Of a stretch of 64,000 nt of DNA, positions 2,969 to 64,000 are shown piece after piece (position 1 is the first letter of the stretch; the number at the start of each line of letters is the position of its first letter). Source of the DNA: an uncultured Verrucomicrobiae bacterium (GTDB lineage Bacteria; Verrucomicrobiota; Verrucomicrobiia; Limisphaerales; Palsa-1400); NCBI GenBank assembly GCA_963702845.1, contig OY969763.1:2592001-2656000 (forward strand), written 5' to 3'. A program made the position numbers and the translations under genes. The notes below the pieces were generated by a model. That model was not told the DNA's origin, ran no database searches, and saw only the letters and a list, made by a program, of their open reading frames with translations.

Positions 2969-4489
2969 TCAATACCCAATCGTAATTTCCAACGGCGCAG
3001 ATTTCCGTTTCGTCGCATGCAACGCCAGGGCCAACGCCCAGAACCGATCCGCATGCCCGTTCTGCCCACGATCAGCGCTGAACCGCACATTCCCACTCGA
3101 CGTATGCTCCTTGCGGATCGCCCGCAAATCAGTGCGCAACAACCGATCATTCGGAATCCGAATCGTCCGATCCTCAAACGCCATCCGCACCGGGTAAGCC
3201 AATTCTTCCTTCACGGCAGGAGTGAAATGGACACCTTCCACTTTGTATTTGCCGAAGCGTTGTTGGGCGCGTTCGGCAAATTGACGGCCGATGCCGGTCT
3301 GGTCGATGCAACAGCGCTTCACTTGCGGCAACGCGAGCAAGTCGTAGAGGCACTTCTCCTGCGCTTCGAACGACGCCTTCTCCATCACCTCAATTCCACG
3401 CGTGTAATAAACGCTGCCGGCCTTTTCCAAAACGTGGATGACCGTCAGATCGCGAGCACGACCGACGTCCACGCCGACAAACAATTCCGGATCGGTCAGG
3501 TTCGCCGGCATTTCCCAATCTTCACCGCTCGGGTATTCGCACGACCCGATCAGGTCATACGACAAAAACGCGCTCTGCTCATCGCACGGAATGCACATTT
3601 GTTCCTGCAAAAACGTTTCCTCATCCGGCGCCTGGTGCTTGAGATAATCGAAATACTCCGCCTCATCCATCTGCTGGCGCTGATCACTCTCCGCCAACTT
3701 CATCTGCATTCGGTACAACAACCCCTGCTCCAGCGCATCCTGCAGCGTCACCTTGTGGAAGCTGAACCCCTTCGGATTCCCTTTGTGCAGAATCTCATCA
3801 ATCAGCTCCTGGAAATAATTCTGCCCGCCGCGCGCCGTCGAAAATATCTCCATCGTTCCACCCCACGCCAACCCCGGCCCGGCAATCGCAAAAAGCTGTC
3901 GCGGATCCCGATGCAGCGCGAACTCATCCAAAATGCGATCCCCGCGCTTGCCCGCCTGAGCATTTGGCGACGAACTCATCGCATGAATCTTCCGCCCATT
4001 CCGAAACTCCAACACATGCGCCTTCCCTCCCTCCTCATCCACGATCGACGTCCCCAAATACTTCGCCGTGATATTCATCGCCGTCGCAAACGACTTGCAC
4101 TCCTGCACAAAAGCCAACGCTCCCGCCTCATCCCGCGACGCCACCCAGGCATCACAACGCGCGCTCTTCACGCTTTTGCGTCCGACCGTTTCCAACTCCG
4201 TCATCCACGTCCACCCGATCTGCCGCGCCTTAACCGCCAACTTGAACGCCGACCGATCCAACACCCAATTCCGCTGATACGGCAATAAAAGCGCCCCACC
4301 CGGCTTCACCTTCGCCTTGCCGAAAAACGGTCCCTTCAACAAATCCGGATACATTGCATCCAGCCTGACATCCGCGAACGGCTTCAACTCCACCCTATCC
4401 ACAAACCGCTCCACCGTTTCCACCGACACCAACTGCGACGCCAGCAAAGCTGCCTGCGCCGTCACCTTCTGTTTCAAACTCATCTTCAT
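2969..4489 (-). CDS. Mu-like (FluMu gp28) terminase large subunit
   Basis: PYQRNW Q-motif, KARQIGWT Walker A, ILDEFA Walker B, FSTARG motif III, and nuclease motifs VGVDVGR, IDQTGIG and GHADRFWALAL. Confidence 0.92.
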   Translation of the reverse strand: MKMSLKQKVTAQAALLASQLVSVETVERFVDRVELKPFADVRLDAMYPDLLKGPFFGKAKVKPGGALLLPYQRNWVLDRSAFKLAVKARQIGWTWMTELETVGRKSVKSARCDAWVASRDEAGALAFVQECKSFATAMNITAKYLGTSIVDEEGGKAHVLEFRNGRKIHAMSSSPNAQAGKRGDRILDEFALHRDPRQLFAIAGPGLAWGGTMEIFSTARGGQNYFQELIDEILHKGNPKGFSFHKVTLQDALEQGLLYRMQMKLAESDQRQQMDEAEYFDYLKHQAPDEETFLQEQMCIPCDEQSAFLSYDLIGSCEYPSGEDWEMPANLTDPELFVGVDVGRARDLTVIHVLEKAGSVYYTRGIEVMEKASFEAQEKCLYDLLALPQVKRCCIDQTGIGRQFAERAQQRFGKYKVEGVHFTPAVKEELAYPVRMAFEDRTIRIPNDRLLRTDLRAIRKEHTSSGNVRFSADRGQNGHADRFWALALALHATKRKSAPLEITIGY

Positions 4490-4615: not shown

Positions 4616-4713
4616 GTTGGACGTTGGAATGCGATCCGGACGTTCCGGTTGGACGTTGGACGTTCGCCTTCCCACTCACCGACTCACCGACTCACCGACT
4701 CACCGACTCACCC
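4616..4713. repeat. Short tandem repeats: GTTGGAC 7-mers, then (ACTCACCG)x5
   Basis: GTTGGAC units at 4616-4664; ACTCACCG x4 plus ACTCACCC at 4674-4713. Confidence 0.85.
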
Positions 4714-4724
4714 ACTTTCGATTC

Positions 4725-5513
4725 TCAGAGCAACCGCATCGCCTTATGAATCTCCGCCAACCCCTCCTCCGAAATCCCCTCCGCCTTCTCCACCGCGCTA
4801 ACCAGCTCCTTCTTCTGTTTCGCCACATGATCGCGATACCGTTGAAACGCCAGTTCCATGCGCTTGCGCCGTCCCCGATCCCGCGCCTGATCACTCGCCG
4901 CCCGCGCAATCCGAAAGAAAACCTCCGGTTTACTCTGGATAAGCGAAGCCAACTTCCCGCTCTGCAAATCCTGCAACGCGTGCAAAATCTGCGTCGCAAT
5001 CAGCAACTCATTAAACCGCTCAAACCCTTCCCTCTGATTTTCGTCGATTTCACCAAGCGCATTAAAAACCCGTCCCAAATCCGCCTGCAATGCCGCAACA
5101 CGTTCCTGTTCCTGCAACCAGTCTTGATGACCTCCGTGGCGCCACCTCGACAAATCCCACTTCTTCAAACCAGAAAACCCCTTCTCCGCAAGCCTCGCTA
5201 AAATCTCCGAATACGTGCGCCCATCCCTCATCTCCGCATTCACCCATTCACGCACCTCAAACGGCAAATTCGCCACCTTCCCCCAGCGTTTATGACCCTT
5301 GAGCACTCCAGCCACCCCGCCGCTCATTGAAGCCGGCCCCTCTGCATCACCACTCGACGCCACGCGACCGCGATCCACGCCGCCTGACGCAGATGACTCC
5401 ACTTGAGGAATTCTTATTCCCAATGCGTGATCTACTCCCCCGAACCGATTGGTAGCTTCGTCAGGCGCACCACCCTCACCACCCATATTTTTGTTATCGT
5501 TATTCAAATTCAT
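4725..5513 (-). CDS. DUF3486 / Mu gp27-like protein (putative terminase small subunit)
   Basis: GKVANLPFEVREWVNAEMRDGRTYSEILARL ... LSRWRHGG HTH-like N-domain and C-terminal GISEEGLAEI; lies directly upstream of the gp28-like gene as in Mu. Confidence 0.75.
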   Translation of the reverse strand: MNLNNDNKNMGGEGGAPDEATNRFGGVDHALGIRIPQVESSASGGVDRGRVASSGDAEGPASMSGGVAGVLKGHKRWGKVANLPFEVREWVNAEMRDGRTYSEILARLAEKGFSGLKKWDLSRWRHGGHQDWLQEQERVAALQADLGRVFNALGEIDENQREGFERFNELLIATQILHALQDLQSGKLASLIQSKPEVFFRIARAASDQARDRGRRKRMELAFQRYRDHVAKQKKELVSAVEKAEGISEEGLAEIHKAMRLL

Positions 5514-5548: not shown

Positions 5549-5780
5549 AAACTGTAGGGAAAGGAAGGAAGCCAGGGAAAGGAGGGAAAGAAACAGCACT
5601 TTTATATGACAAAATGTGGCTATTAAGGCACTAAGGCACAAAGATTGCTGAGGCTGTTTTTAACCACGGATCAAACACACGTATCGGAAAAACCAAAGGG
5701 GAACGGAGGACACAGAGCTGATGCAAAGAGTTACTGATAGCTTGATGAAATATCTTGATACCATGAACCAACGCGTTTTG

Positions 5781-5960
5781 AACTCCAGAGGAGTGACATG
5801 TCTATAGATGGATGTACCCCACCGCCCCAATTTGTTTTTCGGCGGCGCGGGATTTACGGCCAAAAACCATTCGAACGGCTTTCCCCCGCGCCGCCGAAAA
5901 ATAAAATTAGATATAGGTGGTCGTGCAGTTCTATAGATATGTCACTCCTATGGAGTTTCG
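5781..5960. mobile_element. ~180-bp palindromic REPIN/MITE-like element, copy 2
   Basis: AACTCCAGAGGAGTGACATGTCTATAGA ... TCTATAGATATGTCACTCCTATGGAGTT with the same inner IR as 1489-1668. Confidence 0.8.
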
Positions 5961-6511
5961 AAGACCCACAGAGGTTGCTGGAAAAGATTCGCTGAAAGCT
6001 TGAGGAAATATGTCAGCTTCACGAAATTGTCGAACGCAATTTCTGGCCTCTCCTCGTGGCTGTAACCGGTCATCTCTTTGGCCAAATCAACCGGAATATT
6101 AAAGATGAAATCAGCGCCCCCCTCTTCCTCTTGCTGCTTGGTTAAGCGCTCGCGAATCGCGGCGAAGACAGCGGGGGGCTGACCCTCAACCTCCAAATGC
6201 CCATCGCCCTCTTGGGCGTCATGAGTGACTGACCAAATCTGCTTGCCGTCTTTCCAGCCGGCTGCACGGCTGACCATAACATGCTCCTCAACAAAGCATG
6301 CGACGACCTCACAACCACGCGACACTTGCCGTGCCTCGTCGTTTGTGAGTTCATGCTGGCCATGGATCACCAGATACCAACCGCTCGGCAACGAGCCTCC
6401 GCAGTATGGTGCCTTGCAATACTCCTTGCCGATATTCTTCAGTCCGAAGTCGTGCAAGACCGCCACCGACGGTTTTCCACGAACTGCAAACCAAGTTAGT
6501 GATGCACCCAT
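5948..6511 (-). CDS. Hypothetical protein, integron cassette 2 (3' end runs into the repeat element)
   Basis: ATG 13 nt downstream of the attC R' site GTTCGCT; 187-aa ORF with no recognisable catalytic motif. Confidence 0.65.
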   Translation of the reverse strand: MGASLTWFAVRGKPSVAVLHDFGLKNIGKEYCKAPYCGGSLPSGWYLVIHGQHELTNDEARQVSRGCEVVACFVEEHVMVSRAAGWKDGKQIWSVTHDAQEGDGHLEVEGQPPAVFAAIRERLTKQQEEEGGADFIFNIPVDLAKEMTGYSHEERPEIAFDNFVKLTYFLKLSANLFQQPLWVFETP

Positions 6512-6516
6512 ACGCG

Positions 6517-7032
6517 TTACGATAGCGAACGTCCCGAATCAGCTACAGCCGCCAGGCCGAGATTTCCGAATTGCCAACGACTGTCACGGCGGCTGTTAGC
6601 TGCATGCGGCTTGTTCGGCAGAGCTGGTTTGAATTGTGTATATATGTTTCTTTGTGGAAATCTTTTCGCAAGCTCCGCTTCCAGATCATGAAATAGCTTT
6701 TCAAAATCTTTAATCGAATCTTGGTAGCAACAGCCGTTTATGGCCAGCGACTCGATGTTCGGGCCTTCCCCCAGACTGATTATGACAAACGTACGCTGCA
6801 GTGCCTGATAGGACATGCCCCGCAATTTGTGCCGGTTATCGTATATGCCTCCGTCTTTTGAAAATGAGCGCTCGGAAAAAAAGCCATCCAACATGGAAAC
6901 GGGTTCTGCATTCGTCTCCCTGATAAGGTCCATGCTTATCAAAAAGGTGGCTTTTGGCACCGTGTTCGATGGGGTCTTCGAGCAGGACGACAAAACGACA
7001 GCTAACAAAAAAAGACTGATATAGAATCTCAT
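6517..7032 (-). CDS. Hypothetical lipoprotein, integron cassette 1 (ORF reads through attC)
   Basis: Lipobox LSSC; C-terminus PNKPHAANSRR...AVADSGR is a translation of the attC. Confidence 0.65.
   Translation of the reverse strand: MRFYISLFLLAVVLSSCSKTPSNTVPKATFLISMDLIRETNAEPVSMLDGFFSERSFSKDGGIYDNRHKLRGMSYQALQRTFVIISLGEGPNIESLAINGCCYQDSIKDFEKLFHDLEAELAKRFPQRNIYTQFKPALPNKPHAANSRRDSRWQFGNLGLAAVADSGRSLS
6524..6619 (-). mobile_element. Integron attC site (96 bp)
   Basis: Minus strand: R'' GCCGAAC, 5 nt, L'' GCATGCAG, CTAACAGCCGCC ... GGCGGCTGTAG, L' CTGATTC, 5 nt, R' GTTCGCT. The stem has extrahelical bases, and the cassette begins with TTCGGC, complementary to R''. Confidence 0.8.
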
Positions 7033-7044
7033 GTAGCGAGGTAG

Positions 7045-7106
7045 GCCGAATAATTAATATGCGACAACTGTTCGCATAGTTTTAATTGGCGAACAAGGGT
7101 TTTATA
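7045..7106 (-). mobile_element. attI-like site, copy 1 (no integrase adjacent)
   Basis: TGTTCGCCAATTAAAACTATGCGAACAGTTGTCGCATATTAATTA/TTCGGC immediately before cassette 1; homologous to 46453-46514. Confidence 0.6.
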
Positions 7107-7508: not shown

Positions 7509-7610
7509 TCTACCACCTGAAACCCATTCTCGACGGCCTGTCCAATCAATAATACGCTGGAATTTCCATAGGGGGAAATCAAGGCGCTGCTTTGGGTTGA
7601 CTACACAACA

Positions 7611-7638
7611 TTGACACGCCGTTGCTTCACGTTATAAT
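7611..7638 (+). promoter_or_regulatory. Consensus sigma70 promoter
   Basis: TTGACA-16 bp-TATAAT, both hexamers exact. Confidence 0.65.
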
Positions 7639-7958
7639 CCCTTCGGCCGCCGGTCCTTACCGGCATTCGGTGAAGTGCAACCCGGATATGATCTTTGACA
7701 AAAGTTGCAGGATTTCCTGCTCCAAAACCGCTCCACTTTGCAACTAATTGCAGGAAGGAAGCGGAAGTTGCAGGAAGTTGCAACATTCCGATGATATTTT
7801 TTGTGCGGGGCGGATTGGACGAATCCCATTGTGATAGATTAAGGGGAGCGACCGTCCCTAGCTGGAGTTTATGGGCCGCTTCGAAACAGGGCTTTTGTTT
7901 TCGAGTCAACTACGACAATCTCGCTACTTATCCGCTCATCACCTCGGCGGCTACAATT

Positions 7959-34776: not shown

Positions 34777-34851
34777 TGGCTCCAGAGGTAGGACTCGAAC
34801 CTACAACTTCGCGGTTAACAGCCGCGCGCTCTACCATTGAGCTACTCTGGA
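34777..34851 (-). tRNA. tRNA-Asn (GTT)
   Basis: TCCAGAGTAGCTCAATGGTAGAGCGCGCGGCTGTTAACCGCGAAGTTGTAGGTTCGAGTCCTACCTCTGGAGCCA; cloverleaf with encoded CCA. Confidence 0.97.
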
Positions 34852-44752: not shown

Positions 44753-46108
44753 ATGAGCTTCACAATTAATCGCCGCCGTTTCCTCCAAACCTCTGCCGCG
44801 TCGCTCGCCTTCTCGGCCCTCGGCAGCTATGGCGTCGAACTCATCAACCAAAAACCCAAACGCGTCGGCCTGATCGGCACCGGCTGGTATGGCAAGAGCG
44901 ATCTGTTCCGCCTCATCCAGGTCGCGCCCATCGAAGTGATCTCGCTGTGCGACCCGGACAAACATCAGCTCGCGGAAGCGGCGACCATGGTCAGCCAGCG
45001 CCAGAAATCAAAAAAGATTCCCCGCACCTACACCGACTATCGAAAGATGCTCGCGGAAAAAGACCTCGACATCGTGCTCATTGGCACGCCCGACCACTGG
45101 CACGCACTGCAAATGATCGCCGCCGTCGAGTCAGGCGCAGACGTTTACTGTCAAAAACCCATCAGCGTCGATGTGATGGAAGGCGAAGCCATGATCGCGG
45201 CGGCACGCAAGCACAACCGAGTCGTGCAAGTCGGCACTCAACGCAAAAGCACGCCGCACCTCATCGAGGCCAAGAAAAACATCGTCGAAGCCGGCCTGCT
45301 CGGAAAAATCGCCCACGTCGACATCTGCTGCTACTACCACATGCGCGCCAACGGCAACCCGCCGGTCACCGCCGTCCCCGATTACTTCGATTACGACATG
45401 TGGACTGGCCCAGCCCCGCTGCGGCCGTTCGACGGCATGCCGCACACCCGCTGGTGGCGCACCTTCATGGAATACGGCAACGGCATCGTCGGCGACATGT
45501 GCGTGCACATGCTCGACACCACGCGCTGGATGCTCAAGCTCGGTTGGCCGAATCGCGTCACCTCCTCTGGCGGAATCTTCGTCGACAAAACCGGCAAGTC
45601 CAACATCAGCGACACCCAATCCGCCACGTTCGACTACGACAACCTCACGGTGAATTGGCAGCACCGCACCTGGGGCGCTCCGCCCGATCCGCAATACGAT
45701 TGGGCCCTCGTTCTTTACGGCGACAAAGGCACGCTTAAAGCAAGCACCTGGAAATACGATTTCATTCCGAACAAAGGCACGACCATCCACAAAGACTGCG
45801 TTTTCGAGCGCGAGAAATTTCCCGAAGACGTGACCGAACCAAAAATCGAACTCAACGCCGCGCCCGCCACGCGTCTGCACATGCTCGATTTCCTCGCCGC
45901 CATCGACAAACGCAGCCGCCCCGTCGCCGACATCCAGGAAGGCCACATCTCCACGGCAAGCTGCATCCTCGCCAACGTCTCCATGAAACTCGGTGGCCGC
46001 CCGCTCGTTTACGACCAGGCCAAACGCCAGGTCGTCGGTGATCACGAAGCAACAAAACTTTTACGCCGTCCTTACCGCACCGGGTACAAACATCCCGAGG
46101 TGGCATAA
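44753..46108 (+). CDS. Tat-exported Gfo/Idh/MocA oxidoreductase
   Basis: RRRFL Tat motif, GLIGTGWYG, TPDHWH, QKP, GTQR, DMCVHMLD. Confidence 0.92.
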   Translation: MSFTINRRRFLQTSAASLAFSALGSYGVELINQKPKRVGLIGTGWYGKSDLFRLIQVAPIEVISLCDPDKHQLAEAATMVSQRQKSKKIPRTYTDYRKMLAEKDLDIVLIGTPDHWHALQMIAAVESGADVYCQKPISVDVMEGEAMIAAARKHNRVVQVGTQRKSTPHLIEAKKNIVEAGLLGKIAHVDICCYYHMRANGNPPVTAVPDYFDYDMWTGPAPLRPFDGMPHTRWWRTFMEYGNGIVGDMCVHMLDTTRWMLKLGWPNRVTSSGGIFVDKTGKSNISDTQSATFDYDNLTVNWQHRTWGAPPDPQYDWALVLYGDKGTLKASTWKYDFIPNKGTTIHKDCVFEREKFPEDVTEPKIELNAAPATRLHMLDFLAAIDKRSRPVADIQEGHISTASCILANVSMKLGGRPLVYDQAKRQVVGDHEATKLLRRPYRTGYKHPEVA

Positions 46109-46136
46109 TCGGTTGGGTCAAAGTTCAAGAAGCAAA
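46065..46136 (+). repeat. Oxidoreductase 3'-end/downstream repeat, copy 1 (72 bp)
   Basis: 65/72 identical to 46589-46660; partial copy at 55784-55829. Confidence 0.85.
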
Positions 46137-46154: not shown

Positions 46155-46445
46155 TTAACTCGAAGTGTTCTCAAAATAATCAGCACCGCACTTAGAACAG
46201 TGTGTGACCTCGACGGTTACCGTGCGCAATGGTTTTTTACACTTCGGACATACCAGTCGATTGTTGCCGAGGACAACAGCGAAAATGCAGAACACCACCC
46301 CGAAGCCGGGCAACATAGGGCCAATCCGGCCACTCGGCTGACCGAATTTCGACATCAGGAGACCGATGCCAACGAGCACTATCCCGGTGTGCAACAAGTA
46401 TCGAGATGTCTTAAGGCGGGATTTCGAAATGCGTGTATTGGTCAT
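46155..46445 (-). CDS. Small 2TM protein with zinc ribbon (cassette-like)
   Basis: Two hydrophobic segments, CPKC...CSKC; ATG 8 nt after the GTTCGGC core site. Confidence 0.65.
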   Translation of the reverse strand: MTNTRISKSRLKTSRYLLHTGIVLVGIGLLMSKFGQPSGRIGPMLPGFGVVFCIFAVVLGNNRLVCPKCKKPLRTVTVEVTHCSKCGADYFENTSS

Positions 46446-46452
46446 TGGTTCA

Positions 46453-46514
46453 GCCGAACAATTAATACGACATGTGTTCGCATATTTTTTAATTCACGAA
46501 CAGCGCCTTATATA
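46453..46514 (-). mobile_element. attI-like site, copy 2
   Basis: TGTTCGTGAATTAAAAAATATGCGAACACATGTCGTATTAATTG/TTCGGC; homologous to 7045-7106. Confidence 0.6.
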
Positions 46515-46588
46515 TCACCAACCCGCTGTTCGTTGAAGCATTCTTCACTTCAGCCTTTGTAGCCTTTAGAATTTAGCCTTCGTTCTGG

Positions 46589-46660
46589 GCCGTCCCTACC
46601 GCACCGGATACAAACATCCCGACGTGGCGTAAGCGGTTGGGTTAAAGTTCAACAAGCAAA
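46589..46660 (+). repeat. Oxidoreductase 3'-end/downstream repeat, copy 2
   Basis: Encodes RPYRTGYKHPDVA*; preceded by a TTTAGCC heptamer block. Confidence 0.85.
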
Positions 46661-46678: not shown

Positions 46679-47035
46679 TCACTCTCTGGCACCGGTTTGA
46701 TACAGATGCTCCGCACAATAAACAACCCCTCGGACGCGAGGTTGATCGCATCCCTGCCGAATGCACTTCTCGTCCGTAAGTCCGCCTCGCGACCGTATTA
46801 AATAATCACGCCGCAACAACGTAGTGTCGAATTCTCTCCACCCATCTCGCTCGGGGATCTTAACAGCGAACTGTGTCTGAAGTTTGTCGAATTCGTCCAC
46901 CGACCAAAGCTGGTCGCAACACGGGCAGCGAAAGAGACGCACCCAATTACCTGTTTCCAATAGTTCGAAGCGCCCGATTTCCGGATGATTGTCCAGCTTT
47001 ACGATGTCTGGAAGCTGAGAGCATTTGCACGGCAT
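46679..47035 (-). CDS. Small Cys-rich putative metal-binding protein (cassette-like)
   Basis: CKC, CPCC, C..C...C..H motifs; GTTACGC core-like site 15 nt upstream. Confidence 0.7.
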   Translation of the reverse strand: MPCKCSQLPDIVKLDNHPEIGRFELLETGNWVRLFRCPCCDQLWSVDEFDKLQTQFAVKIPERDGWREFDTTLLRRDYLIRSRGGLTDEKCIRQGCDQPRVRGVVYCAEHLYQTGARE

Positions 47036-47137
47036 AGCGAATTCTGACGGCGTAACATGGTTCTCTGACCAGAGCCTTGTATATCACCAACCCGCCATTC
47101 GTTGAAGCATTCTTCACGGGACCAATTTGGTGGCGGC

Positions 47138-47210: not shown

Positions 47211-47289
47211 AGCAAAGAACAGAGCCGCGTGCATCAAAAGATCTCTTTTTTGTTTTAGCCTTTAGCCTTTAGAATTTAGCCTTCGTTCC

Positions 47290-63607: not shown

Positions 63608-63970
63608 CTAGTTCTTTGGCGCGTATTTTTGTATCCAAGGCTCTGGCTTATTGCCCAAATCTTCGCCCGTCTTCGTGCGCAAATACCCAATTATATCTCG
63701 AATGACATTCGTCCGCTGAAGATTACAAACCTGGTCGAGCGGTGACCCTTCTCTCTGCTTCATATTCAGGCCGTAGCTAGCGTACGATAGGCGCTTAGCC
63801 GCTTCTGGAACATTCGTGCCAAGCGCCTCATCGCGATACCGCTGCAAACCGAATACTTCTCTCTGGGCGTATGCAACTTCCACGTTTCGAGTCATGTCGC
63901 CGAGAAAGTGAATCACGACAATGAAAAACACTCCAAGCCCAGCCCATACTTTTATCCATCGAGGAATCAT
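63608..63970 (-). CDS. Small membrane-anchored hypothetical protein (cassette-like)
   Basis: N-terminal TM, C-terminal YLRTKTGEDLG..PEPW; preceded by ATTAATT/GTTGAGG. Confidence 0.65.
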   Translation of the reverse strand: MIPRWIKVWAGLGVFFIVVIHFLGDMTRNVEVAYAQREVFGLQRYRDEALGTNVPEAAKRLSYASYGLNMKQREGSPLDQVCNLQRTNVIRDIIGYLRTKTGEDLGNKPEPWIQKYAPKN

Positions 63971-64000
63971 AGGTTCAGTATGGCCTCAACAATTAATCCA

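Follow-up and report, generated by a model that had tools for sequence, protein, structure and literature searches.

The explanation that we regard as likely for a set of cassette-bearing loci in a Verrucomicrobiae chromosome is that the attI of one integron clade was uncoupled from its intI, multiplied and was loaded with cassettes in trans, and that these sites now lie dormant in a chromosome without intI. The usual description of an integron is a single attI next to a single intI. In this genome, the attI would have spread over a chromosome and gone on receiving cassettes without an adjacent integrase. The genome is a single 6.03-Mb contig, and the stretch analysed, which we call the window, comprises its positions 2,592,001–2,656,000 (64,000 nucleotides).

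Cassette loci in the window

An earlier sequence-only reading of the window placed a minus-strand motif at 7045–7106 and 46453–46514, and both full copies lie exactly there. Site 1 (7045–7106, minus strand; subfamily 1, profile E 4e-18) has a TGTTCG box beginning at 7095, a crossover at 7051/7050 and a core ATTCGGC whose first base is 7051; 12 nt past the core, the ATG at 7032 opens the first cassette ORF (6517–7032, minus strand, 171 aa), the product of which has a lipoprotein-like N-terminus (Pfam LPAM_1 below cut-off). The intact attC of this cassette (6524–6619, minus strand) comprises R'' GCCGAAC, a 5-nt spacer, L''/L' and R' GTTCGCT. Its bottom strand folds as the expected hairpin (−23.3 kcal/mol, z −2.44, equalled by 3 of 200 shuffles), and the R'' complements the TTCGGC behind the site 1 crossover. 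The canonical attC proposed for this locus is therefore present with its fold and complementarity, but the ORF does not end in it as had been stated: it reads through the attC to 6517, and its 50% identical paralog (genome 4,070,591) reads through its own attC as well. The proposed second cassette is found as an ORF of 187 aa (5948–6511, minus strand) without an intact attC; AGCGAAT at 5987–5993 (minus strand), noted by eye and matching the expected AGCGAAC at 6/7 positions, is a possible, weak R'' remnant. Atlas searches with both cassette proteins returned unnamed clusters only.

Downstream of this array lie a Mu gp27-like small terminase gene (4725–5513, minus strand) and a terminase large subunit gene (2969–4489, minus strand), and locus 1 sits within a prophage-like remnant. 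A general link to the terminase family of the window was not found (3/35 clusters within 20 kb versus 1.3 ± 1.1 at random). In one relative (G002), the gene orthologous to that upstream of locus 1 has different neighbours and no attI. A long, MITE-like inverted repeat occupies 5780–5960, between cassette 2 and the small terminase gene. On the other side of the array, a repeat with TTGACA..TATAAT-like hexamers (7590–7760) faces a BtpA-family gene, and a similar sequence comes after the site at genome 1,825,575.

Site 2 (46453–46514, minus strand), a hairpin-headed variant of subfamily 1 (profile E 1e-8), has its TGTTCG box from 46502, a crossover at 46459/46458 and a core GTTCGGC with its G at 46459, and the ATG follows at 46445, 7 nt past the core. 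The ORF behind it (46155–46445, minus strand, 96 aa) encodes membrane segments and a zinc-ribbon-like end, with all Pfam matches below cut-off. It has no attC and no matching R'' left (best 5/7), so that core/R'' complementarity is seen at window site 1 and not at site 2. Flank repeat A (46515–46546, minus strand) lies upstream of the site and flank repeat B (46060–46125, minus strand) downstream, beside a convergent oxidoreductase gene. A second copy of A at 47078–47117 (11 copies are listed genome-wide) heads another ORF (46679–47035, minus strand, 118 aa) with no attI core ahead of it, and since a second copy of B follows at 46590–46655, locus 2 is made of two stacked A–cargo–B units. In a congener (G001), the orthologous locus is bounded by the same A and B flanks but contains different cargo and lacks an attI; a HicA/HicB-like gene pair, recognized by eye, and another ORF stand there (L154:3400–3800) in the place of the attI unit. 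Short intergenic heptamer/octamer tandem repeats occur at 4640–4720, 46540–46580 and 47250–47280, and relatives of them recur in the genome and in congeners.

The third copy, described earlier as cut by the window edge, exists as a derivative. Its 3' end (63984–64000, minus strand) consists of flank A joined to GGATTAATTGTTGAGG and extends past the edge, but the copy is not full, being internally deleted with the central TATGCGAACA-GTCG part missing. The ORF behind it (63608–63970, minus strand, 120 aa) belongs to no Pfam family and has no attC-like match. No cassette footprint was found at window sites 2 and 3. The promoter that had been placed within the motif was not detected, as a consensus scan called no sigma-70 promoter at window sites 1 and 2; flank A contains a TTCAAC-17-TATATA pattern, noted by eye.

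Census of attI-like sites

Profile searches of the whole genome gave at least 76 attI-like sites of two subfamilies at 33 loci. Subfamily 1, that of the window, has 46 copies at E<0.01 and 56 at E<1 with an iterated profile, which has no match at E<1 on the reversed genome; subfamily 2 adds 30 further copies at E<1e-6 (best control match E 0.12). Mean identity within subfamily 2 is 0.92, and this subfamily is young. The core starts with GTT in 56 of the 76 sites (window site 1 has ATT, window site 2 GTT). The count of 76 is a lower bound because more divergent heads exist. An extra repeated head sequence at genome 4,070,510–4,070,590 and 274,570–274,630 stands before cassette-like ORFs, including the paralog of window cassette 1, and is possibly a third attI-like family outside the 76.

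The attI-like sites and 83 attC-like matches fall into 44 clusters, of which 33 contain an attI-like site. Thirty-nine sites head a unit and 37 are internal, behind another site or an attC, so the multiple solo attI sites that had been proposed are real as dozens of intI-less copies, but nearly half of the 76 are not solo heads. The attC profiles took the place of a first, strict heuristic that had missed most decayed sites. They were trained on 19 of 40 candidates, all from this genome, and thus score those 19 by construction; at 10 bits they give 68, 47 and 38 matches versus 1, 3 and 0 in controls. Half-site profiles were used at 9.5 bits, so a few of the 83 matches are false. The bottom strand is on the lagging-strand template for 61/76 attI-like sites, 67/83 attC-like sites and 22/33 clusters, with the origin placed by GC skew at about 4.75 Mb, a position different from that of dnaA (3.40 Mb). 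Passages of PMC5371416 report that most sedentary integrons (25/30) have the orientation opposite to that of these sites.

Homology to attI

Among relatives, an IntI scoring above the family cut-off is encoded in 16 of 61 genomes. A short IntI clade (6 of 21 loci), carried by Limisphaerales and other Verrucomicrobiota, has a motif-like site right before the intI start and facing away from it. The subfamily-2 profile matches two of these intI-adjacent sites at 38.3 bits (G048, E 6e-11) and 29.0 bits (G233), and the subfamily-1 profile matches the same two at 19.1 and 13.1 bits. Aligned with them, window sites 1 and 2 have the same boxes and the same end, and a phage intI (L066) has ATATGCGAACAGGTGTCGC directly 5' of its start codon. 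Judged by these alignments, the motif is an integron attI, homologous to the intI-adjacent sites of the short IntI clade, and subfamily 2 shows the stronger homology of the two. The identification of the motif as an attI is thereby upheld, and the profile scan of the genome and its relatives that the sequence-only reading had proposed turned up both dozens of copies here and kin sites next to intI elsewhere.

The nearest intI-linked sites are more similar to subfamily 2 than to subfamily 1. Nowhere was an exact subfamily-1 site found beside intI, and its exact pattern has no match in the genome, viral and metagenome contigs searched. With three mismatches allowed, the subfamily-1 pattern matches 3/61 genomes, each belonging to this genus, and the subfamily-2 pattern matches 6/401.

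Cassette loading

The tests of loading cover the 71 of 76 sites that have a recognizable core; the other five were dropped. An ATG-initiated ORF of at least 60 aa begins 4–32 nt past the core at 60/71 sites, versus 11.4% of 3000 random positions. For complementarity, the R'' was sought where the first ORF ends or in the first attC, and cores were shuffled among sites. A perfect 7/7 match between core and R'' is found at 26/71 sites versus 3.5 ± 1.6 in 3000 shuffles (maximum 11), and at 23/67 sites when restricted to the stop window. Since the shuffle retains the GTTAGGC consensus that the cores have in common, the excess is specific to individual sites. It is present in both subfamilies, with 9/43 versus 1.3 for subfamily 1 and 17/28 versus 3.0 for subfamily 2. 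In statistical terms, these matches show that cassettes entered at G|TT through IntI-type attI × attC recombination. The first ORFs (median 130 aa) are mutually distinct save for two homologous pairs, in agreement with the claim that the sites precede different cassette-like genes, and 44/67 of them have a hydrophobic N-terminus versus 699/2727 long ORFs.

The two subfamilies differ in what is left of their cassettes. An attC-like match stands behind 24/28 subfamily-2 sites and a near-full attC behind 20/28, versus 8/43 and 5/43 in subfamily 1, where a perfect R'' is absent in 34/43; subfamily 1 is largely decayed. Many attC remnants look like hairpin deletions, which, according to a passage of 10.1101/2022.09.11.507474, are expected from replication slippage. 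In the older subfamily 1, most attC sites would since have been deleted and the cassette genes fixed in place.

The motif holds two inverted repeats, and its boxes are more conserved than a spacer (0.87–0.95 versus 0.66 in 30 copies), which may be inherited rather than selected. The inverted repeats, together with the persistence of the motif where attC is gone and the occurrence of flank A at the head of ORFs without an attI core, would suit a transcription-factor site or promoter repeat before accessory genes, whose likeness to an integron is incidental. We consider such a repeat very improbable: core/R'' complementarity is far above the shuffles, the motif is homologous to the attI position beside intI, compensatory changes in the two repeats are few (4 and 1 versus 46 and 30 one-sided changes), a sigma-70 promoter was called at neither window site, and the spacing of the motif departs from that of the Verrucomicrobia LexA box, TGTTC-N4-GAACA. 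The motif may also have a secondary promoter role. A structured RNA was also considered and dropped on account of the few compensatory changes and of the Rfam search, whose sole match in the window is a tRNA gene (34780–34851, minus strand).

The missing integrase

No intI was found in the genome, where the best TIGR02249 score is 85.9 bits versus a cut-off of 265. Neither tblastn with 21 IntIs, nor a 77-sequence profile on six frames, nor the clade alignment detected a remnant, and only other tyrosine recombinases were returned, the two best of which we take, from length and score, as XerC/D-like. The 77-sequence profile, which does detect intI stubs in relatives, found none ahead of any of the 76 (best E 1.4). 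The absence of an integrase noted for the 64-kb window thus extends to the whole genome. The check that the sequence-only reading had suggested, a copy lying beside intI in this genome, came out negative, and a genome lacking intI was the very observation it had named as counting against its proposal. As the chromosome holds neither intI nor a remnant, no resident integrase serves the sites; of the idea that one integrase serves them all in trans, the trans loading stands for copies that carry a host-gene scar (see below), and the resident enzyme does not.

Relatives are better supplied. In the same family, 18/31 genomes carry 1–7 copies of their own attI type, and by tblastn, 30 attI loci retrieved from 17 relatives comprise 3 with an intact intI, 1 with a frameshifted intI, 17 with a decayed 5' stub and 9 with none. 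This pattern of stubs and decay indicates that integrons of the clade arrive repeatedly and lose intI. Four genomes (G015, G025, G027 and G013) each have one intact intI plus extra attI copies; in G013, an attC-like sequence lies directly before the intI start, at the usual attI position (L021). Solo attI sites of this type, with intI more than 1.5 kb off or absent, occur in three other families of the order (L176 in G164, L180 and L182 in G344, L177 in G064), and G164 has a clade IntI with an internal stop on a different contig.

The clade is also found on mobile elements. In three relatives, its intI adjoins an HUH Rep gene: intI and a small rolling-circle Rep gene (L018:414–2484, L020:1163–3317 and L050; PF23343, E 3e-7 in L018) stand tail-to-tail and are accompanied by small ORFs, an arrangement that may represent a small integron-bearing mobile element. 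There are also IMG/VR contigs on which a clade IntI is accompanied by phage genes and attC-like matches. In the phage-like contigs L066–L099 (e.g. L069, L079 and L083), the clade IntI is 46–63% identical to the query and a compact attI lies directly against the start codon of intI. ORFs between attC-like matches in L066, L069 and L083, including DNA methyltransferases and an HNH gene, read against the array direction. Phages or rolling-circle elements are a possible source of IntI. The IntI tree was built in a quick version only, and no donor is inferred from it.

The counts of intact, frameshifted, stub and absent intI among those 30 loci, at 1–7 copies per genome, match an account in which each locus is an independent arrival of a whole mobile integron (intI, attI and cassettes), loaded in cis, whose intI later decayed, and in which trans action is unneeded. 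Window locus 1, adjoining terminase genes, fits it as well. We judge this account unlikely for the present genome, because an intI stub is found at 0/76 sites, a Rep remnant is absent from the genome, and subfamily-2 copies share a host-gene scar yet carry different matched cassettes, the evidence being thinner for subfamily 1. The arrival of the first subfamily-1 copies may nevertheless be explained in this way.

A network that is active now, with intI on an unassembled plasmid or phage or in an assembly gap, would accommodate the youth of subfamily 2 (its 0.92 mean identity and 20/28 near-full attC sites), an estimated genome completeness of 89.76% and the four relatives that pair one intact intI with further attI copies. 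It has little probability in our assessment. Cumulative GC skew returns to about zero, 20 amino-acid tRNA types are present and the open frames at both ends of the contig are in register, so the chromosome is apparently closed, although an extra replicon alongside it is possible; two congeners, only 67–73% complete, have no IntI of the clade; and subfamily-1 cassettes are mostly stripped of attC. The attI family was loaded in trans in the past and is probably dormant now. The integrase would have come from a gene since cleanly deleted or from a visiting phage or rolling-circle element, and the set of attI sites would act as distributed integron entry points, dormant unless IntI arrives.

How the sites multiplied

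Subfamily 2 provides the clearest view of the process. A shared non-intI linker is present in 22/28 of its sites. Ahead of the linker, most of them have a scrap of the phosphoketolase gene of this genome, taken from its 3' end; the identity of this scar is about 91–100% both among copies and relative to the phosphoketolase end in the genome itself. A matched R'' is found in 11 of the 22 linker-sharing sites, with differing cassettes. The scar stands where intI should be, yet these 11 carry different matched cassettes, which indicates that IntI acted in trans and bears out the loading in trans that had been proposed. At the intact phosphoketolase gene, the adjoining scrap follows an attC via the junction G|TTAGACTGCTTCGC. 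Among the 20 other scar copies, compared by eye, 7 start at the TTA(G/A)AC-TGCT.. junction behind different attC ends, 1 starts at the junction behind non-attC sequence and 12 have lost the G|TT junction. The unit of junction, scar, linker and attI would be what IntI excises between an attC and a downstream attI. The subfamily-2 module has the features of an attI-type cassette, namely an upstream crossover, a downstream attI and a position inside an array, and fusions of R'' followed by attI are present in the genome, e.g. at genome 4,286,404. The window copies head their units and were not found as attI-type cassettes.

For subfamily 1, no common left junction was found and no intI stub marks its source. 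Its copies group by shared upstream flanks, including terminase-like and kinase gene 3' ends that are repeated on both sides of the unit, and flank recombination is the likely means by which the subfamily spread, window site 2 included. The attI would thus have been uncoupled from intI in this lineage and then multiplied to at least 76 copies by two putative routes. By the first, which is clear for subfamily 2, IntI would excise and re-insert the stretch from an upstream attC to an attI as an ORF-less 'attI cassette'. By the second, units of promoter, attI and cargo would be stacked and swapped via repeated flanks (gene ends, repeats A and B). A more far-reaching picture, which we offer tentatively and as less than even in probability, is that of a split integron: host-borne, genome-wide attI pads that spread as cassettes and are loaded in bursts by the IntI of phages or rolling-circle elements, a state that is stable because the enzyme is usually absent.

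Comparison with known systems and significance

The complete integrons of the clade, in Limisphaerales and other Verrucomicrobiota MAGs and in phage contigs, share with the present loci the site sequence, its length, the G|TTRRRY end and short cassette ORFs with the same attC type. They differ in that their site abuts the intI start and occurs 1–7 times per genome, mostly with intI or its stub, whereas here at least 76 sites stand without a trace of intI; cassettes with a folded attC are present, and an intI adjacent to attI is not. By their attC sites, the arrays here would be classed as CALINs or SALINs: several arrays elsewhere in the genome have two or more attC without a nearby intI, as CALINs do, while in the window locus 1 has one attC (SALIN-like) and loci 2 and 3 have zero. 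The CALIN and SALIN descriptions, in the passages considered, likewise concern cassettes and attC far from any intI (PMC4889954; 10.1101/2022.09.11.507474; 10.1101/2025.06.18.660453). According to these passages, half of the CALINs come from intI-free genomes and 95% have no intI pseudogene nearby (PMC4889954), and CALINs are stated to be mobilizable in trans (10.1101/2025.06.18.660453). However, both classes are defined there by attC only and SALINs are ascribed to attG sites (GWT), whereas the cassettes here stand behind full, homologous attI sites, the insertion sites being a conserved 55–60 bp family homologous to attI and not attG. As described in part of PMC4889954, IntegronFinder seeks exact class 1–3 attI only, and copies such as these would go unseen. 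The origin of some CALINs and SALINs can be tested on this basis: they may sit behind unrecognized attI copies, missed by standard tools outside classes 1–3. The genome also provides a natural set of 76 attI variants, each recording whether it was loaded or not, plus a candidate cognate IntI clade.

No paper on genome-wide attI multiplication was found in the open literature, the scope of our search. The attI-type ('unusual', Delta-attI) cassettes of class 1 and 2 integrons, as presented in passages of PMC12901181, which cites Partridge 2009, likewise have a whole or partial attI behind a cassette in an array and are moved by IntI; IntI1 is reported there to excise and insert attI-bounded cassettes, with immediate excision of attI1-ORF-attI1 in the presence of IntI1. 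Those cassettes are rare, occur singly in mobile integrons and mostly have an attI stub of 11 bp, whereas the full sites here are amplified across a chromosome and stacked in tandem, as would suit an integrase that is absent most of the time. The distinction from classical integrons and CALINs that the sequence-only reading had drawn therefore holds for full attI sites without intI but is less sharp than proposed, as CALINs mobilized in trans and attI-type cassettes were already described. Closest in another respect are phage-borne integrons and CALINs: passages of PMC9892861, from which Verrucomicrobia are absent, report a second attI heading a CALIN in one prophage, that is, two attI in a single prophage, compared with dozens in the host chromosome described here.
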